DNA of 64,000 nt from assembly GCA_963921275.4 (NCBI GenBank), contig OZ001293.3:5728001-5792000 (forward strand). Reading direction: 5' to 3'. Positions 2,260-40,040 of this stretch are shown here, in pieces. The stretch comes from an uncultured Hormoscilla sp. (GTDB lineage Bacteria > Cyanobacteriota > Cyanobacteriia > Cyanobacteriales > Desertifilaceae). Below the pieces are notes generated by a model that was not told where the DNA came from, searched no databases, and worked only from the letters and a program-made list of their open reading frames with translations. The translations under genes were made by a program, and so were the position numbers. Position 1 is the stretch's first letter. The number at the start of each line of letters is the position of its first letter.

Positions 2260-2544
2260 GATACTTCCTGGGCAATGGTCCCGGTTGCACAACAATCTTC
2301 AAAGTTTTTCCTTGACGGCGCACCGTCAGCAACAATCGATCTCCCACCGAACTTTTTTGGACTATTTGCTGGAGTTGGCCAGCGATCGCCTAATTGGGCA
2401 ATTGGCAATGTTTTACTCATGATACTTCCTGGGCAATGGTCCCGGTTGCACAACAATCTTCAAAGTTTTTCCTTGACGGCGCACCGTCAGCAACAATCGA
2501 TCTCCCACCGAACTTTTTTGGACTATTTGCTGGAGTTGGCCAGC
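2222..2544. repeat. 161-bp direct tandem duplication covering the def 5' end and protease 3' end
   Basis: 2222-2383 is repeated at 2383-2544; the junction forms GCGATCGC. Confidence 0.9.
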
Positions 2545-3703
2545 TTTGGTCACAGTTTTACCATCTATCTCTTGGACCACATCACCTTTTTTCAGTCCGG
2601 CGGCAGATGCTGAAGAGTTTGGGATTACTTCGGCAATTAAAACACCTCTCTTCTCTGCGATCTTCAACCCCAAGGACCGATCGATGCCTGAGGGGTTGCC
2701 TGCGTTGCATCCCGAAGGCATCGAAGGCCTTCAAGTTTTCGATCAACTCAGGGGTGATGGTGGCCATGCGGATACCCAAGAAAGGATGGGAGACCTGACC
2801 AGTAGCAATCAGTTGCTCGGCAATCCCCTGCACTTGGTTGATAGGAATGGCGAAACCTAAAACCTCGAGCACCTCCAATAATAGCAGTATTCATGCCAAT
2901 GACATCGCCTTGCTGATTTAACAGGGGCCCACCAGAATTACCAGGGTTGATTGCCGCATCAGTCTGAATGAACCCAACTCGCTTACCAGGAACGCCTACT
3001 TGAGAACTAGAACGACCAGTAGCACTGATAATTCCAGCAGTGACCGTATTGTCCAGCCCTAAAGGATTCCCGATCGCGATCGCCCATTGCCCAGGTTGGA
3101 GCTGCTCCGAATCCCCCACAGTCACCACCGGCAAATCCCCAGCCGAGATTTTGACCACCGCCACATCGGTGAGGCGAATGGCTGCGCCACGCTGCGCGAT
3201 CGGACCCCAGTACCTCACCGTCAAAGGAACGACCATCCTTGAGAGTCACTGTCACTTTCTTGGCACCATCTACCACATGGGCATTAGTGACAATCAGTCC
3301 ATCAACATTAATGATAAAGCCAGAACCAGTTCCTTGCTGTAGCTAGTTACCTCCGGGACCAAAAAACCGTCGGTCTCCCCGGCGAGGTGTATCTCCTGGA
3401 GGAGATACAGTCCGGTCAGCATCAATTCTCACCACCGCCGGGCCAACTTTGGCCACAGCAGCAGCAATAAAATTATAGTTAGCCCCAGCCATCCCCGGAC
3501 TAGACAAGGCGCGAGCAGCAGGATGTGGCAGTGCGCCAGCCATCAGCAGCCGATCGGCCACAAAGGTCACCCCTGCCCCAACCAGCAGCAGCACTAGGTA
3601 CTGCTTTACCCGCACCGTTATCAGCATCAGCCCTACACGGCTTCGCCTGCGCGAGAAATCGGCTTCGCACAGGGCCGTGAAAATGCTCGCCTGTTTTACT
3701 CAT
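2413..3703 (-). pseudogene. HtrA/DegP-family (HhoA-like) serine protease, disrupted
   Basis: [23 protein letters not shown] and PDZ segments split across frames; TAG at 3343; repeat insertions at 3177-3198 and ~2682-2723. Confidence 0.85.
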
Positions 3704-4228
3704 TTAGTCCTCCTTATCAGTCAAAGTAGTCCGCTATTACTATTCTGTACGACGAGAATCGATCGATTCTCCGCAGGATTAATTAGAATCTTGTCAACAC
3801 CCTCTCTCCTGATGGGGATGTAAAATTAACAATTGTGGAGGTGTCTGGAGTGGCAATTACCCTTGAAAGTCTCTGGTCTCAAGCTAAGGAGCGTTTACAG
3901 ATCGCACTGACTCGACCGACATTTGAGACTTGGATCGAGCCAGCGTCCGCAATGAAGATGACTTCTAATTGCCTAGTAATTTCCACCCCCAACTTTGCCC
4001 GCAATTGGCTACAGAAATATTATCTCAAAACCATTGCTGATGTGGTGCAGGAAATTTGGGGTCAGCCAGTGGAAATCCAGATTGTAGTCGCTGCGGACGA
4101 TGGCGCTGCGCCATCGCACCACCGGATCTGACGGGGATATCCTGTGGCCATTGCCGGCCACGACTAGGGAACCAGATCGGGGCACGCCAAACCAACCCAG
4201 ACCGACGAACTTAAACCCCAAGTATGTA

Positions 4229-6096
4229 GTGCGACTCGTTTCGGCCTAACCTGTACAAACACGGAAAAGCCGAGCCAAAATTGGACTGAATGTTTAGAAC
4301 CAAAACTAATCATAATCGGATGGGGTCGAGCCGGGAATCGCTTCCCGACCCTCCCTTGAGGAACCGGACTTGCGATTTTCACCGCATCCGGCTACTGGGT
4401 ACTAGGCCCTTTTCATAGGTAGACTTAATAGGAATTACTTCCGTTAGCCCTTGCCGCCTGTCTTTTCTTCCCTTTCCTGGTTTAGCGAGTGGTTGTTCTG
4501 ATAACCGTTAGTATCACCATTTTCAAGTCAGTTTTACCAGTTATCCATACCTTATCCTCCACTTGCGTTTCGGATTAGTTCCGTGGCTTTTTAGGATTAC
4601 TCATTCCAGCAGCTTCCTAGTATCACCGACCCACGTCAGCGCTGGCTACCCAGCATCATCTACATTACTGTAGATGTTATCCCAGGAATTACCCCGGGCA
4701 TTCGCTTCTTGGGCCATCCCTCCCCCCGTGGCTTGCGCTTAACATCTAACTTGTCCTGATGGACAGCACACGAGAGGTTACTTCGTTCCCTAACAACATT
4801 TCGCGATACCTTTAGGTCCACACTATACCCCGGGAGCTATTTGAGTACTATATTAGCCAGAGTCTAAAACTAATACTAGCTACCATTTCCTTTTTAGGCC
4901 AGCGCATATAGCCTTATTTCGCTGGTTCCTTATAACGAGGCTTGCACATGTTTGCCTGCTCTAACCTTGGATATCTTTCCTAGCGGCGTCACCGGCTTAG
5001 GCTGCCAGTTATCCTACATTTGAGTCCTCGCTTAGCACCACGATGATGTCGCTTCGTAGCACCGAGGACCGGTGTCACCCCCGTACCTGGGGGGAGGGGA
5101 ATTTAACCCCCATGCGGTCAGAGTTCCCGGCTAATGAAACCGGGCTAGCGTTCCGTGTTTGACCACGTTAGGCTAGAACGAATCGCACAGGCTCAATATG
5201 GTAACTCTGGTCATCATGGGGGTTAAATTCCCTCTCCCCAGGTGTGGGGGTGACACCGGTCCTTAGTGCTGCGGAGTGACATCACCGTGGTGCGGAGCAA
5301 GGACTTAAATGTAGGATAGCTGACAGCCCAAAGTCGGCAACTCCGCTAGGAAAGATGCTCATGGTTAGGAAAACGAATCTGTGAAAGCCTCGTTATGTGT
5401 AACCAGCGGAAGAAGGCTTACACGCTGGCCTAAAAAGGAAATGGTAGCTAGTGTTGGCTGTTGCATATGGCCAACATCACACTCAAAGTAGCTCCCGGGG
5501 TAAAGCAGGGACCTAAAAACATCGTGAAATGATACCAGGGAACGAAGTAACTCCACGTGTGCTGTCCATAACTACTCGACTATCGACCGGTGGTCAGGAG
5601 ATAGGGACCAGTTAGATGATAAGCGTAAGCCATGTGGAGAGAGATGGCCCAAGAAGCAAAGGACAGGGGTAACTCCTTGTATAAGTGGTGCAGGAATGTA
5701 CCGGCAGACGTGGGTCGGATATAGTTGGAAATCTTGGGTGGAAGTATCCCTAATACGTACCAAAAATCAGGAGAAATCCTAGATTGTAATATGGACTAAA
5801 ACTCTAGCCGGGTAAAACTTGAAAAGTCCCCTAATGACGAGACAGGGGCAATGTTAGCAAAGAGCGGTATAAGTGGTTTCCTGGATACCCCCCGCGAACC
5901 TTCCGGAGCTAGATACGAAACAGTCCTATCGACTACCATAAAGGGGAAAAACTGCATAAGAAGAGGGACAAAGGGAGCAATCCCCAGTAATCCTGCCAAT
6001 GACAAGGTCCAACTAACCAGTAGCCGTGTGCGATGAAAACCGCATGCACGGTTTGAAAGGGAGGGTTGGGAAGCGATTCCCAGCTCGACCCCTAAT
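4229..6096 (+). mobile_element. ORF-less group II intron in dnaA (outer; ~1.0 kb net of the nested element)
   Basis: Starts GTGCG; domain V AGCCGTGTGCGATGAAAACCGCATGCACGGTT at ~6022-6053; ends CGACCCCTAAT; precise removal restores the DnaA sequence at the junction; no RT ORF. Confidence 0.92.
4320..5188 (-). mobile_element. ORF-less group II intron nested antisense inside the dnaA intron
   Basis: Minus strand starts GTGCGATTCGTTC, has domain V AGCCGGATGCGGTGAAAATCGCAAGTCCGGTT and ends CGACCCCAT (3' end could be 2 nt further). Near-identical copy at 39171-40040. Confidence 0.92.
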
Positions 6097-7108
6097 TTCT
6101 CGCGATTTGTGGTCGGCTCTAACAATCGCATGGCCCATGCAGCAGCCCTGGCCGTGGCCGAGTCTCCCGGACGGGAGTTTAATCCTCTATTCCTCTGTGG
6201 TGGCGTCGGTTTGGGAAAAACGCACCTGATGCAGGCGATCAGTCACTATCGCTTAGAGATTGCACCTGAGTCTAAGTTATTTTACGTCTCGACGGAAAAA
6301 TTTACCAATGACCCTGATTACCGCCATCCGCAAGGACAGCATGCAAAGCTTCCGGAAACATTATCGGGCCGCCGATGTGCTGTTAGTAGACGATATGCAG
6401 TTCATTGAAGGCAAGGAATACACCCAGGAAGAGTTTTTCTATACCTTCAACACCTTGCACGAAGCTGGCAAGCAGGTTGTCTTGGCATCCGATCGCCCCC
6501 CGAACCAGATTCCGGGGTTACAGGAACGCCTCTGTTCTCGGTTTTCGATGGGATTAATCGCCGATATTCAGCCGCCAGATTTAGAAACTCGGATAGCTAT
6601 TCTGCAGAAAAAGGCAGAAGACGAAAATATTCCCCTGCCGCGAGATGTGGTAGAATACATTGCCAGTAACTACACTTCCAATATTCGCGAACTAGAGGGG
6701 GCATTGATTCGGGCAGCAACCTATATGTCTATTTCTGGTTTGGCCATGACAGTGGAGAATATTGCGCCAGTATTGAATCCCCCTGTTGCGAATGTGGAGG
6801 TGTCTGCGGAAGTGGTGATGGCAGCGGTGGCAGATGAGTTTAATCTGTCCATCGAAGATCTCAAGGGTAATTCCCGCCGCCGGGAAATCTCCCAGGCCCG
6901 TCAGGTTGCCATGTATTTGGTGCGTCAGAACACGGACCTCAGCTTGCCCAAGATTGGCGAGGAATTTGGCGGCAAGGACCACACGACTGTAATCTACAGC
7001 TGTGATAAAGTGGCTCAACTGCGGGATAAAGATCCCGATATGGCGAAGAGATTGCGGCAGTTGAGCGATCGGATCAACCTGATCGGCAAATCCCAAAGCC
7101 AATTTTGA

Positions 7109-7402
7109 ACGATCGCACCTGTGGAAAAATTCTGGTAACTGTGGAAAACTTGTGAAAAAATCTCATATCATTTATAAAAGCTACAAAAGAGCCGTTCGTA
7201 GTAAGCACTTTAGTGCTTCGGGGTTCGTAGTAAGCACTTTAGTGCTTCGGGGTCACGATGCATCATCTATATATGTAGCATTAATTTAGATAATTTAATA
7301 TAACTTCCCAGAATTTTTTCCACAATTTGCAGATTATCGAATTTTTAGTTTCCTGAGTGCTATTGGGCTTAAAATAGATGAGCCGAGCGCTAGCGAACGC
7401 CC
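7109..7402. promoter_or_regulatory. Putative oriC between dnaA and dnaN
   Basis: TTTTCCACA boxes at 7120-7128 and 7140-7148 (minus), 7316-7324 (plus), a 1-mismatch box at 7151-7159, and an AT-rich tract at ~7265-7305. Confidence 0.75.
7194..7251. repeat. Two tandem 29-bp REP-like palindromic units
   Basis: GTTCGTAGTAAGCACTTTAGTGCTTCGGG x2, each with an AAGCAC/GTGCTT hairpin. Confidence 0.8.
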
Positions 7403-8659
7403 ATGAAACTGGTCTGTAACCAAAGTGACCTGAGTACGAATCTATCGATCGTCTCCCGTGCGGTGCCCTCTCGCCCCACACAACCAATACTTGCCAAGGT
7501 GAGACTGCAAGCAGATGGTGCGAGTCAAGAAGTGAGCTTAACAGCGTTCGACCTCAGTCTAGGAATCTCAACTAGCTTTGATGCGCAGGTAGCAGAGTCG
7601 GGGGACATCGCCCTGCCTGCAAAATTGCTTTCGGACATCGTTTCCCGTCTGCCAGCAGGAGAGATATCCCTGGATCTGGAGACAGAAAAAGCAATAGTCT
7701 CCTTAACCCAAGCTTCCGGACGATATCAAGTCACGGGACAGGAGTCGGAAGAATTTCCGGAATTGCCAGTAGTAGAGGATGGGGAAGTTTTGACTCTGCC
7801 CACAGAAGCACTGAGATCCGGGTTGAACGGCTGTTTGTTTGCTGCGAGTACCGATGAAACCAAGCAAGTTCTCACGGGAGTACACTTGAAAATCTATGGT
7901 GATAGTCTGGAATTTGCGGCCACTGACGGACATCGTTTAGCTGTGGTCAAAACTGCTAATCAGCCGGCGGTGTCTGGAGCATGCTCTTGTCCTGAAGGAC
8001 GCGGCATGCTCCAGACACCGGAGTCGGAGTCGCAAGAGGAGTTGGAGTCGGAGTTGCAAGAGGAGTCGAAGCCGGAAGGGGACCAGCAGAGGACAGCAGA
8101 TGAAGCGTCTTTTGAGGTGACAGTACCCGCGAGAGCTTTACGGGAACTAGAGCGGATCGCGAACCAACAAAAGCAGGATAAGACAATTGCCCTGCATTTT
8201 GACCAGAAGCAAGTTGTGTTTGAGTTAAAAAACCAAAAACTGACTACGCGCACTCTGGAGGGGCAATATCCTCCCTATCAGCAGCTGATACCCAAGGAAT
8301 TCGAGCGACTGGCGACCGTGGATCGACGGCAACTAGTACAGGTCTTAGAGCGCATTGCCATTATCGCCGACCAGAAGAATCATCTGGTCAGGTTCAGCTT
8401 AGACAGGGACAGCCAGCAGCTGACTTTATCTGTGGAAACAGCTGATGTGGGCAGCGGGCAGGAGTCGATGGCAGCACGGATATCTGGAGAGAGCTTAGAG
8501 ATTGACTTTAATGTCAAGTATTTTTTGGAGGCAATCAAAGCTATGGGCTCCCAGGAACTGGAAATGCGGCTGAATGCAGACGATCAGCCCGTAATCCTCA
8601 CTCCCTTAGGAGGGATGCAGATGACCTGTTTGGTGATGCCAGTTAAAATTAGACCCTAA
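7403..8659 (+). CDS. dnaN: DNA polymerase III beta clamp
   Basis: ATDGHRL and LVMPV motifs, downstream of dnaA; in-frame palindrome at 7968-8020. Confidence 0.96.
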   Translation: MKLVCNQSDLSTNLSIVSRAVPSRPTQPILAKVRLQADGASQEVSLTAFDLSLGISTSFDAQVAESGDIALPAKLLSDIVSRLPAGEISLDLETEKAIVSLTQASGRYQVTGQESEEFPELPVVEDGEVLTLPTEALRSGLNGCLFAASTDETKQVLTGVHLKIYGDSLEFAATDGHRLAVVKTANQPAVSGACSCPEGRGMLQTPESESQEELESELQEESKPEGDQQRTADEASFEVTVPARALRELERIANQQKQDKTIALHFDQKQVVFELKNQKLTTRTLEGQYPPYQQLIPKEFERLATVDRRQLVQVLERIAIIADQKNHLVRFSLDRDSQQLTLSVETADVGSGQESMAARISGESLEIDFNVKYFLEAIKAMGSQELEMRLNADDQPVILTPLGGMQMTCLVMPVKIRP

Positions 8660-26818: not shown

Positions 26819-29680
26819 ATGGTAGATGAACCAGATTTTCAAGAGGCAGGCGATCGCCTGCCTCCCCAAAACATCCAAGCAGAGGAAGATATCTTAGGAG
26901 GCATTCTCCTGGACCCGGAAGCTATCGGTCGGGTGGCAGATATCCTGCGTCCAGAGGCTTTTTCTCTGCAAGCTCATCAGCGCCTCTATCGCTGCGCCCT
27001 CACTCTCCAGAATGAAGGCAAACCAACGGATCTGACGACTGTCACTACCTGGCTGTCTGACCAAAACTGGCTCGGGTCGGTAGGGGGGATGAGCAAGTTG
27101 GCTCAACTGGTGGACCGTACTGTCAGTGCTGTCAATATTGACGAGTACGCGAAACTGGTGATGGACAAGTACCTGCGTCGCCAGTTGATTCAAGCTGGTC
27201 ATGATATTGTCGGGCTGGGGTTTGAGACTTCTACAGAGTTAGAAGTTGTGATGGACCGGGCCGAACAGAAGATTTTCGACCTGCGGACGGATCGTTTCCA
27301 GCAGGGTCTAGTTCCCATCTCCAAAACCCTGGTCGGTGCTTTTCAAGAAATTGAAATCCAAAATCAGGGGACAGCTTTACCGGGTATTCCCTGCGGTTTC
27401 TATGACTTGGATGAACTCACTGGGGGTTTTCAACGTTCTGATTTGATTATTGTGGCGGGTAGACCGTCCATGGGAAAATGTTTGGCGTCTAATGCGGTTA
27501 TATTGCTGGCAACTGGCGAAGTGGCTACCATTGCCGAAATATATCAGCGGCGTCAAGCCCAATTGCTGACTCTCGGGGAAGATAGAAAATTTGGCATCAC
27601 TTCACCATCTGCTTTTGTGGATGATGGCATCAAGCCTGTATTTCGCGTTCAAACTCGACTGGGACGGGTGGTTGAAACGACAATTACTCATCCTTTCTTA
27701 ACTATTAATGGATGGCAGCAGCTTGGGAAACTTAAAAGGGGCGATCGCATTGCGGTTCCTCGCCAGCTGGAAATTTTTGGTACAGAATCTATCCCTGAAT
27801 GTAGAATTAAGTTGTTAGCATACCTAATTGGGGATGGTTGCCTCACAGGTGCTTCACCCCAGTTTACGAACGGCAACCCCCGACTGCAAAAAGATTTTGT
27901 TCAAGCTGTCTCTTTGTTGCCAGGGCTAAAAGTTACTTATCAAACTTCACAGGGTAGGCGCACGCCCAGCCTTTATGTTACAGCTGATTTAGAATTAATT
28001 GCGAAAAACCGACAGCTTTTTGGCAGTAGTCTGCGCACAATTCTGCAGTCCAAATCGATATCCAATAAAAAACTGGCTCAAGCGGTGGGAGTCAGTGGGT
28101 CTTTGGTGTGTCTGTGGCAGCAAGGAGGCTGCGTACCGAATCAAGAAACCTTTAGTCAGCTATGCGAGTTTCTGCAAGTAGATCCCGAAAAACTTGCGCC
28201 TCATGGACTTGCCGCAATTAGTAAAAACAGCAAAAATACCCTGACGCTTTGGTTACAAGAATTAGGTCTGTGGGGCAAGAAAGCACATACTAAGACTGTC
28301 CCTCCAGTTGTTTTTAAGTTGAGGCGATCGCAGCTTGCTCTCTTCCTCAACCGTCTGTTTTCTACCGATGGATGGGCGACAGTATATTCAAGCGGTCAGC
28401 TGTGTCCCTCCTTTTGTGCGAATAGCGCATGCGCTGCGCGCACGCTACGCGATCCCGGGGGACACAGGTCGCAGGTGGGATATGCTACAGCTAGCGAGCA
28501 ACTGGCACGACAGGTACAACATCTTTTACTCCGGTTTGGCATTATTGCAGCTCTGAAAAAAAGGTCGGTTAAATACAAAGATACCCGCAAGCGTGCTTGG
28601 CAGCTAAATATTACTGACTCGAAATCAATCAGAACTTTTATCTGTGAAATTGGTATTTTTGGTAAGGAAGAGAACTTGTCCTTAGTGCAAGCAGCTTTAG
28701 CAGAGAGTCCGATGTGCGATGCGCGCGCTATACATGCACAGTGCAAAGAACATCGGGCTGGAATTAGGGGATACAGCAATATTCATGTTGGCAAACGGGC
28801 TTTATCGCGAGAGAGACTTCTAACATTGGCAAGGGCTTTAGATAATTGGCCCTTACAACAGTTAGCTACTTCTGATGTATGCTGGGATAAAATTGTCTCT
28901 ATAGTACCGGTTGGCTGGCAGCAGGTGTATGATTTGACGATTCCTGAGACGCACAATTTCGTTGCTAATGATATTTGCGTTCATAATACTAGCTTTGTTC
29001 TCAATATTGCTCGCTCTATTGCTGCCAAGCCAAAGCTGCCGATCGCTATCTTTAGTCTGGAAATGTCCTGCGAACAGTTGGTGATGCGTTTGCTATCTAG
29101 TGAGGCGAATATTGAAAGTAATCGCTTGCGATCGGGCCGCATCACTCAACTGGAGTGGGAACCTTTAAGTACTGCCCTGAGTACTCTCTCTGATTTGCCA
29201 ATTTTTATCGATGATACTCCTAATCAAACAGTAAGTCAGATGCGATCGCAAGCCCGCCGCTTGCAAGCCGAACAGGGTGGTGTTTTGGGTTTAATTTTGA
29301 TCGATTACTTGCAACTCATGGAAGGCGCTAGTGATAATCGAGTACAGGAGTTATCCCGCATTACCCGTCAACTCAAAGGTTTGGCCCGATCGCTGAATGT
29401 CCCTGTGATTACCCTTTCCCAGCTGTCTCGCGGTGTCGAATCTCGCAATAATAAACGCCCGATGATGTCTGATTTAAGGGAGTCTGGATCGATCGAGCAA
29501 GATAGCGATCTAATTTTGATGCTATATCGTGATGAATATTATAATCCTGATACCCCCGATCGCAACATTGCCGAAGTGATTATTACCAAACATCGCAATG
29601 GTCCCACTGGGATGGTAAAGCTATTGTTTGAGTCAAATCTGACTCGCTTTCGTAACCTCGCCCCTCGCGATCGTTCTTAA
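26819..29680 (+). CDS. dnaB: Replicative helicase DnaB with intein
   Basis: PPQNIQAE, GRPSMGK|T, IDYLQL and LRESGSIEQD motifs; likely start MVDEPDF. Confidence 0.96.
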   Translation: MVDEPDFQEAGDRLPPQNIQAEEDILGGILLDPEAIGRVADILRPEAFSLQAHQRLYRCALTLQNEGKPTDLTTVTTWLSDQNWLGSVGGMSKLAQLVDRTVSAVNIDEYAKLVMDKYLRRQLIQAGHDIVGLGFETSTELEVVMDRAEQKIFDLRTDRFQQGLVPISKTLVGAFQEIEIQNQGTALPGIPCGFYDLDELTGGFQRSDLIIVAGRPSMGKCLASNAVILLATGEVATIAEIYQRRQAQLLTLGEDRKFGITSPSAFVDDGIKPVFRVQTRLGRVVETTITHPFLTINGWQQLGKLKRGDRIAVPRQLEIFGTESIPECRIKLLAYLIGDGCLTGASPQFTNGNPRLQKDFVQAVSLLPGLKVTYQTSQGRRTPSLYVTADLELIAKNRQLFGSSLRTILQSKSISNKKLAQAVGVSGSLVCLWQQGGCVPNQETFSQLCEFLQVDPEKLAPHGLAAISKNSKNTLTLWLQELGLWGKKAHTKTVPPVVFKLRRSQLALFLNRLFSTDGWATVYSSGQLCPSFCANSACAARTLRDPGGHRSQVGYATASEQLARQVQHLLLRFGIIAALKKRSVKYKDTRKRAWQLNITDSKSIRTFICEIGIFGKEENLSLVQAALAESPMCDARAIHAQCKEHRAGIRGYSNIHVGKRALSRERLLTLARALDNWPLQQLATSDVCWDKIVSIVPVGWQQVYDLTIPETHNFVANDICVHNTSFVLNIARSIAAKPKLPIAIFSLEMSCEQLVMRLLSSEANIESNRLRSGRITQLEWEPLSTALSTLSDLPIFIDDTPNQTVSQMRSQARRLQAEQGGVLGLILIDYLQLMEGASDNRVQELSRITRQLKGLARSLNVPVITLSQLSRGVESRNNKRPMMSDLRESGSIEQDSDLILMLYRDEYYNPDTPDRNIAEVIITKHRNGPTGMVKLLFESNLTRFRNLAPRDRS
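27479..28987 (+). mobile_element. 503-aa intein in the DnaB P-loop with LAGLIDADG endonuclease motifs
   Basis: GK|CL...VYDLTIPETHNFVANDICVHN|T; block B TITHPF; LAYLIGDG and LFSTDG motifs. Confidence 0.93.
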
Positions 29681-38883: not shown

Positions 38884-39170
38884 GATCGTGGGTGCGATGG
38901 TGCTGCGCTGGGGCCTGCCGGCGTTCGGGGGGGGCGGACATTCCTGTGAGCATGCCGGTCATGGGATGTTTCTCCTTATGGATTGGAATCCGGTATTAAT
39001 GTATTCGGTGATTCGGGGCCATATCCGGAAGGTTTACTAGGGAATTAAGTTATGGGCGATCTGTGTGGTGTGGGGGTATTTCCTTTTGGGTCAGGGCTAG
39101 CCATCCACTGCTTTTTTCTAGCTTAGTACACTAACTCGCAAAAAGCAAGTAAGTAGGTGTGCATTGGTGG

Positions 39171-40040
39171 ATGGGGTCGAGCCGGGAATCGCTTCCCGAC
39201 CCTCCCTTGAGGAACCGGACTTGCGATTTTCACCGCATCCGGCTACTGGGTACTAGGCCCTTTTCATAGGTAGACTTAATAGGAATTACTTCCGTTAGCC
39301 CTTGCCGCCTGTCTTTTCTTCCCTTTCCTGGTTTAGCGAGTGGTTGTTCTGATAACCGTTAGTATCACCATTTTCAAGTCAGTTTTACCAGTTATCCATA
39401 CCTTTATCCTCCACTTGCGTTTCGGATTAGTTCCGTGGCTTTTTAGGATTACTCATTCCAGCAGCTTCCTAGTATCACCGACCCACGTCAGCGCTGGCTA
39501 CCCAGCATCATCTACATTACTGTAGATGTTATCCCAGGAATTACCCCGGGCATTCGCTTCTTGGGCCATCCCTCCCCCCGTGGCTTGCGCTTAACATCTA
39601 ACTTGTCCTGATGGACAGCACACGAGAGGTTACTTCGTTCCCTAACAACATTTCGCGATACCTTTAGGTCCACACTATACCCCGGGAGCTATTTGAGTAC
39701 TATATTAGCCAGAGTCTAAAACTAATACTAGCTACCATTTCCTTTTTAGGCCAGCGCATATAGCCTTATTTCGCTGGTTCCTTATAACGAGGCTTGCACA
39801 TGTTTGCCTGCTCTAACCTTGGATATCTTTTCTAGCGGCGTCACCGGCTTAGGCTGCCAGTTATCCTACATTTGAGTCCTCGCTTAGCACCACGATGATG
39901 TCGCTTCGTAGCACCGAGGACCGGTGTCACCCCCGTACCTGGGGGGAGGGGAATTTAACCCCCATGCGGTCAGAGTTCCCGGCTAATGAAACCGGGCTAG
40001 CGTTCCGTGTTTGACCACGTTAGGCTAGAACGAATCGCAC
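39171..40040 (-). mobile_element. ORF-less group II intron, second copy of the nested dnaA element
   Basis: Matches 4320-5188 except one 1-nt indel and one substitution seen by eye. Confidence 0.92.

Follow-up and report, generated by a model that had tools for sequence, protein, structure and literature searches.

The sole dnaA gene of this uncultured Hormoscilla sp. is, we conclude with fair confidence, a frameshifted pseudogene holding a nested pair of group II introns that both lack ORFs; it probably died before the introns arrived, and the hairpin predicted for the composite RNA would block splicing. In the window (the whole 64,000-nt stretch analysed), dnaA occupies 3850–7108(+), with an intact dnaN (7403–8659, +; 418 aa) downstream, and its closest named DnaA relatives are cyanobacterial, at no more than 82% identity. 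Lesions in both exons, the exact ends of both introns and target-site matches for both insertions are demonstrated. Each component is familiar by itself (IIB2-like introns without ORFs, twintrons, cyanobacterial dnaA loss); their combination is new.

Structure of the dnaA locus

Exon 1 (3850–4228, +; DnaA_N, PF11638), delimited by alignment with four same-genus genes, starts at a position homologous to the GTG of its relatives (3850) and carries two indels. Relative to the four congeners a 3-bp deletion (3992/3993) removes the Pro of the TPNPF motif, a position occupied in 99/99 relatives and by Pro in 87, and a 13-bp palindromic insertion (4100–4112), missing from 4/4 congeners, shifts the frame into a TGA (4129–4131) upstream of the intron. 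Contigs from sequencing runs X1–X4 show no gap at the former and cover the latter, also with 0 gaps. In exon 2 (6097–7108, +; PF00308, PF08299) the ATPase domain, followed by the helix-turn-helix, is split over two frames by a +1 C frameshift (6312–6314, from alignment with congeners), and contigs span 6068–7222 with 0 gaps in 4/4 runs. The Walker B motif reads DDMQF for DDIQF (6395–6397; I in 99/99 relatives), and the substitutions at near-invariant sites, of which this is one, are I227M (99/99 I), K30E (96/99 K), A335T (98/99 A), E214K (99/99 acidic) and V188L (99/99 I/V). A functional DnaA would hold domains I, III (with Walker A and B) and IV in one frame, whereas here they are spread over three, with the stop at 4129–4131.

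All 99 related dnaA loci examined have a continuous frame and no match to domains 5 and 6 (D5/D6) of a group II intron; this set excludes the present genome (G000) and the frameshifted congener G002, and 21 loci outside the motif pattern (459–532 aa) were counted as continuous. The same-genus genomes (4/4) are intron-free at dnaA; three have intact frames of 471–495 codons and G002 has one 1-bp deletion resembling a homopolymer error. Only one locus in the present genome matches DnaA (at a completeness of 96.7%, a dnaA that escaped assembly is conceivable). Changes on its own branch (11 synonymous and 6 nonsynonymous over 456 codons) are not clearly above those on sister branches (20 and 8; 32 and 18). 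Since the two frameshifts and the 3-bp deletion lie outside the intron, splicing could not restore DnaA, and judging from these lesions the gene would be inactive whether spliced or not. The preliminary description had implied an essential gene relying on a difficult splice; this is not borne out, since the lesions that make dnaA a pseudogene, among them a premature stop upstream of the intron, lie outside it. The loss appears recent, because the gene is full length and retains ~94% identity to intact congeners.

The 13-bp insertion completes a perfect 8-bp inverted repeat (4099–4115) and is possibly a tiny mobile repeat; the neighbouring protease gene of congeners is also broken by GC-rich palindromic insertions. 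In the window this HhoA/DegP-type protease gene (2413–3627, −) is spread over three frames, with a single 413-codon frame in congener G001 only. A gene that we take to be TerD-like (1083–1654, −) has a 1-bp deletion near 1425 relative to 4/4 congeners, and together the two damaged genes are marks of local genome erosion. Two near-identical tandem coiled-coil repeat ORFs (131–133 aa) lie at 81–1004(−).

The outer element (4229–6096, +) is an ORF-less group II intron of 997 nt without its passenger, running from GTGCG to CCCTAAT. It splits dnaA at tta-aac-ccc-aag-tat-gta^ttc-tcg-cga (^, insertion point), and the precise LNPKYV^FSRFVV interruption described earlier is supported by 4/4 congeners, which share an identical empty site (AAGTATGTA^TTCTCG, no duplication). 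Intron nt 1–89 (4229–4317), identical in the empty siblings, comprise the GTGCG end, the first 5′ hairpin and the 5′ portion of an extended second hairpin, as delimited by fold probabilities; nt 90–997 (5189–6096; 99.7–100% identity to nine other copies) contain the rest of D1 and D2–D6. The previously proposed EBS1, TGCATA (5462–5467) in a GTTGGC/GCCAAC hairpin, does pair with the exon end: IBS1 (TATGTA, 4223–4228) matches at 6/6 positions, and the motif recurs at 10/10 family sites with 4–6/6 pairs. D5 (6022–6053), D6 with its bulged A at 6088 and the 3′ end (...CCCCTAAT) lie within 6019–6096. The outer family has ten copies (99.5–100% identity), eight empty and two filled, and the dnaA copy differs from the family consensus at 1/997 sites.

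The inner element (4318–5188, −), defined by an Rfam match and alignment of copies, is likewise ORF-less. Its antisense orientation, noted before, holds, while the earlier length of 869 nt becomes 871 nt by its ends: 138/139 full copies end ACCCCATCC, and the eight empty siblings of the outer intron read ATCATAATC^AGGCTC. D5 (4362–4393, AGC triad), D6 with a bulged A at about 4326, and the 3′ end (...CCCCATCC) fall within 4318–4396, where Rfam Intron_gpII (RF00029) matches 4320–4396(−) at 44.4 bits; the outer intron scores 43.1 bits, and both exceed the gathering score of 40. Both introns have the 5′ GUGYG, the AGC triad of D5, the bulged A of D6 near the 3′ end and EBS1–IBS1 pairing (at 10/10 sites for the outer family; with the flank consensus of 139 copies for the inner). 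In agreement with the corrected ends, the purine in J2/3 changes together with the final base (A..T in the outer, G..C in the inner). Subgroup IIB2 is marked by a pair of additional stem-loops where domain I begins at its base (PMC8643678) and, in the accessible text of PMC4649490, by a GUGCGAUUC start; two 5′ hairpins are found in both families, which begin GTGCGATTC (inner) and GTGCGACTC (outer), and on these features both introns appear IIB2-like.

The inner family numbers 139 copies, and the copy in dnaA has its most frequent haplotype (61 exact copies), with 0/871 differences from the family consensus. Flanks of the 139 copies have the consensus GAGTCT (−6 to −1) and AACCTTA (−15 to −9), complementary to a putative EBS1 in hairpin context (AGACTC, 4860–4865, −) and a candidate EBS2 (AAGGTT, 4963–4968, −), respectively. 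In the outer intron the corresponding target lies antisense (5189–5203, −; IBS1 GAGCCT, IBS2-like TACCATA), and no other site of the 997-nt host, whichever the strand, scores as well (10.8 bits; 36/112 real sites score no higher). We take the insertion point to be a true retrohoming site. It lies at host nt 89/90, in the 3′ strand of the stem CTGA58–61/TCAG88–91 (p 0.94–1.0) of the second 5′ hairpin (nt 46–103). The preliminary description had placed it in a loop closed by GAGCC/GGCTC, but that pairing has a probability of ≤0.01 and the site instead breaks the stem; the hairpin is nevertheless unusually long, as had been noticed, exceeding the one in 13 other families folded. Structurally, one complete intron set precisely within another makes this a twintron. 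It is not a sequentially spliced one: the inner intron lies on the opposite strand and, as anticipated, could not splice out of the dnaA transcript, and the two frameshifts persist in the joined exons.

Another copy of the 871-nt family lies in the window at 39169–40040(−). Most private differences among the 139 copies are G>A or C>T changes, and a subfamily of 21 copies is distinguished by a two-base variant following D5. On the chromosome (C1 of G000) the family also forms head-to-tail arrays of two and three introns (824934–826675 and 5447656–5450268) and five self-nested pairs at nt 768.

Order of events and fate of the composite

dnaA carries five substitutions at near-invariant sites and three indels, against one substitution in 1,868 nt of intron (binomial p 0.025 counting substitutions only, and 0.003 when indels are included). 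Because lesions in the gene far outnumber changes in the intron, dnaA was likely already defunct when the introns came in. The own-branch ratio, not clearly above that of the sister branches, is a caveat to this ordering. Intron copies could, moreover, be rejuvenated by gene conversion, which would weaken it further and, by masking intron age, favour the converse order, in which the outer intron was spliced from a working but dispensable dnaA until the passenger stopped splicing, with frameshifts following later. That order would also suit the sense orientation of the outer intron, its 6/6 match to IBS1, and a genome in which many of the introns within coding frames lie in sense (40/56). We consider it unlikely, given the eight lesions in dnaA against one intron change (p 0.003), a passenger that is the unchanged commonest haplotype, and the occurrence of the frameshifts and the outer junction in 4/4 runs, while the inner junction is absent from contigs of run X3.

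The preliminary description offered a tolerated large loop or a block to splicing as alternatives. Blocking is favoured and a passive loop is not, because passenger and host are paralogues (74% identity over 504 nt in D1–D3, 77% over 130 nt in D5/D6) and the antisense strand is thus complementary to the host. Ten inverted-repeat arm pairs extend across the composite, from the closest (4997–5128/5200–5331, together 4997–5331; 132 nt, 79%) to the outermost (4322–4357/6057–6092; 94%). The predicted minimum free energy is −1002 kcal/mol for the composite and −571 kcal/mol for its parts, i.e. −431 kcal/mol of cross-pairing in a 1.7-kb hairpin, while nine controls (a sense insert, five shuffled and three unrelated inserts) gave −9 to −38 kcal/mol. 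Of 25 predicted D5/D6 pairs, none is kept in the composite, vs 20–25 in controls. In a fold at nascent length, the passenger pairs with 132 of the 150 host nt that directly follow it. The closest arm is predicted to nucleate locally: with pairing span limited to 150 nt, 33/57 local host pairs survive (57/57 in controls) and with a limit of 600 nt, 0/50; at 300 nt the host pairs do not separate composite from controls (16 vs 16–20, of 51), although energy does. Under this equilibrium modelling a block to splicing is the likely outcome for the composite; a maturase could steer folding otherwise. Rfam matches to AsdA and mir-5408 were rejected, both being below the gathering score and the latter merely reflecting the passenger–host hairpin.

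A second composite of outer intron and passenger (L042:1643–4532; G000:C1:4873643–4876531, −) is intergenic, with different flanks, between a CpeS-like gene and a HEAT-repeat lyase gene, and carries an added IS (1,011-bp DDE_Tnp_1_3, 10-bp duplication). Another copy of this IS holds an outer-family intron (C1:4216538–4217534), a reciprocal nesting. The two composites are 100% identical over 1,571 nt and both occupy valid target sites with a 6/6 IBS1 match. Such identity between unrelated flanks is what would be seen if the passenger were tolerated cargo that folded on itself inside domain I, in a peripheral 5′ hairpin, with the outer intron still splicing and the 1,868-nt composite retrohoming to two sites. 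In keeping with this, the length of the second 5′ hairpin varies among families, several sense nests lie at host nt 86–93, and an RT-encoding host family has an antisense passenger at one site in 8/9 copies, which could be read as composite mobility, with only one informative site and a predicted cross-pairing of only −95 kcal/mol. Against it stand the predicted −431 kcal/mol cross-pairing with loss of D5/D6 at dnaA and the disruption of a stem rather than a loop. The composites also have no private change in common (the outer family has eight variable sites), a pattern that fits all three origins: mobility of the composite, separate insertion and gene conversion. Three of eight repeated host sites hold both passenger haplotypes (5+1, 4+1 and 1+1), which shows repeated insertion or conversion, and the filling of 2/10 outer copies is inside the range at repeated sites (2/12, 5/7 and 6/7). 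Repeated targeting thus explains the second composite without composite mobility, by the logic applied to the twintrons of Thermosynechococcus elongatus, where inner introns that are identical and share one conserved site in scattered hosts are read, in the accessible text, as recent independent insertions (PMC2882425). We regard retrohoming of a spliced composite as improbable, and the second copy would probably be a separate insertion or the product of DNA-level gene conversion.

Contigs of 4/4 runs (X1–X4; three samples of one study, which may include the source of the assembly itself) match both dnaA exons with 0 differences and 0 gaps. The outer/inner junction (4317/4318) is crossed by no contig of run X3, in which one contig covers 4280–4299 and then runs on as the empty-sibling form, and in contigs of X1–X4 the joint of 4316 to 5188 takes the empty-sibling form. 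Contigs show presence and not absence, and the X3 result neither confirms nor refutes the nest. Graph cleaning tends to remove short low-depth links between high-depth repeats. No contig of runs X5, X6 or X7 (three other studies) covers dnaA exon 1; X6 and X7 each show a single junction of the outer intron, at a depth of about 2, whose flank belongs to another copy. One further run, with a share of 0.22, bears a sponge-metagenome label, which is not evidence of habitat. At 3910–3926 a contig of X1 breaks and the depth of 20 drops to 12, so that a second allele, or a second strain, may be present for the 5′ end of dnaA. The missing X3 junction, the highly repetitive genome and the homopolymer-like deletion in the dnaA of G002 might together suggest that the nest is a repeat misassembly, or the frameshifts long-read errors in an intact gene. 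This is very unlikely: the insertion is base-precise with no host base lost, at the best-scoring target, the exons are confirmed in 4/4 runs, and 13-bp and 3-bp indels with substitutions of invariant residues are not homopolymer errors. Misassembly is not expected because the join falls at a non-homologous, target-matching position where homology could not have made it, and on the evidence of the join itself we take the nesting to be real.

Our preferred reading, with dnaA dying first, can be set out in four steps. DnaA would first have become dispensable, as in other cyanobacteria, and dnaA decayed. In a recent burst, the 997-nt intron would then have retrohomed into TATGTA^T with reverse transcriptase supplied in trans. 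The 871-nt family would next have retrohomed into the opposite DNA strand of the outer intron, at its best EBS-matching site, which is possible because DNA targeting works on either strand. Finally, the antisense passenger would pair with host D1–D3 and D5–D6, since the two are paralogues, and dismantle the ribozyme. The composite would be a dead end, costing nothing to an already dead gene.

Group II intron load of the chromosome

An iterated profile gave 454 D5/D6 matches on C1 at E<0.001; the parser paired 402 of these with 5′ ends, leaving 107 5′ ends and 52 3′ ends unpaired. The paired introns amount to 423 kb (6.1% of C1), and we estimate from these matches that the chromosome carries about 400–450 group II introns. 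Nesting relations number 35 sense and 22 antisense, some of them transitive or mis-paired. PF00078 has 93 matches, and 13/18 paired elements of 2.3–2.4 kb have open frames of 559–602 codons, giving about 13 RT introns as judged by open-frame length only. Rfam intron matches number at least 111–144 in each of congeners G002–G004 and two in G001 among the matches listed. A family of ~533-nt introns with an odd palindromic 5′ end (GTGCGTCCGCG...; e.g. 370236–370768) is found repeatedly within other introns, at nt 459.

Coding frames contain 56 of the 233 ORF-less introns that are not nested (vs 214/562 random positions), 40 in sense and 16 in antisense orientation (p 0.002), a bias expected if sense copies splice and antisense copies are purged. 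According to the accessible part of one survey, the highest count published for a representative genome is 101 group II introns, which non-representative genomes may exceed (PMC8919778). The present load (6% of the chromosome) is ~4× that maximum, although counting methods differ.

DnaA loss, related systems and implications

The genome has no intact dnaA and an irregular GC skew, as would be found under DnaA-independent replication: the skew shows no clear two-arm pattern (one-cycle spectral ratio 5.5, matched by 6.8% of 500 block shuffles). Three 9-mers resembling what we take to be the DnaA-box motif, at 7120, 7140 and 7316 (7120–7324, between dnaA and dnaN), form an oriC-like relic; a second cluster of four lies far from dnaA (G000:C1:6853940–6854500). 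The idea that replication became DnaA-independent through loss of rnhA or recG was rejected, as both frames are open; that of dnaB is open as well and, at 996 codons (26858–29662, +), about 2× the family length, the extra length probably being an intein. Residual function of a 98-aa N-terminal piece, or of a C-terminal DNA-binding piece made from an internal start and acting at DnaA boxes, would be compatible with open frames at 3835–4131 and 6260–7108, an intact domain IV and three retained boxes, but is highly improbable, with Walker A and Walker B in separate frames, lesions in both fragments, and promoter-like sites not above chance (a promoter and terminator scan was at or below chance level).

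Cyanobacteria that no longer depend on DnaA are known, as far as the accessible texts go (PMC7198777, PMC2900214, 10.1101/2021.02.04.429686). Like the present genome, Nostoc azollae 0708, with a dnaA pseudogene (PMC2900214), and dnaA-less cyanobacteria (PMC7198777) are described there as combining dnaA loss with abundant mobile elements and irregular GC skew, and Ca. Paraprochloron terpiosi (10.1101/2021.02.04.429686), likewise without dnaA, as having 50 RT genes. Unlike in these cyanobacteria, the gene here is still full length, ~94% identical to those of intact congeners, and colonised by group II introns. ORF-less introns in dnaN of Trichodesmium erythraeum splice from a working gene (PMC12584367, accessible part), whereas those of dnaA sit in a pseudogene.

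One of the closest parallels, from the accessible text of PMC4649490, is Tr.e.I7/I8 of T. erythraeum Tery_4732, also a cyanobacterial IIB twintron in a protein-coding gene, with the inner intron in domain I of a host with the IIB2-type start. There both introns encode proteins, the inner splices first and mature mRNA was shown; in the dnaA nest neither intron has an ORF, the inner one is antisense, and the gene that holds them is dead. The TeI3/TeI4 introns of T. elongatus are similarly ORF-less and served by RTs in trans (PMC2882425), and the best solved-structure match of the RT of the present genome is the T. elongatus maturase (6me0, E 2.5e-109). Nests in T. elongatus are, from the same accessible text, spliceable and located at the start of the RT ORF, vs antisense and in domain I in dnaA, and the present genome differs further in its 400–450 or so introns. 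Arthrospira platensis shares intron expansion, ORF-less members and low GC skew (PMC8919778, accessible part); its 101 introns compare with 454 D5/D6 matches and 402 paired introns here, under a different counting method.

In the literature searched, which lay mostly outside subscription journals, no report was found of a group II intron inside dnaA, of antisense or opposite-strand twintrons, or of antisense silencing of group II introns, including an antisense paralogue poisoning its host. We doubt, as a rather far-fetched extension, that antisense nesting acts as a brake on an intron plague, in which a backward-homing paralogue kills its host in cis through a kilobase hairpin while the dead but transcribed dnaA silences in trans; if true, the dnaA trap would emit antisense RNA exactly complementary to the 139-copy family, a bacterial counterpart of a piRNA-cluster trap.

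In this locus dnaA loss is caught in progress, in a full-length gene newly colonised by introns, and the switch to DnaA-independent replication becomes datable and comparable inside one genus. The empty intron (eight copies) and the composite (two copies), with the passenger as sole difference, also provide a natural pair for the study of cis-poisoning. If such poisoning is true, backwards nesting would be a self-limiting step in intron bursts, bearing on models of intron proliferation before spliceosomal introns.
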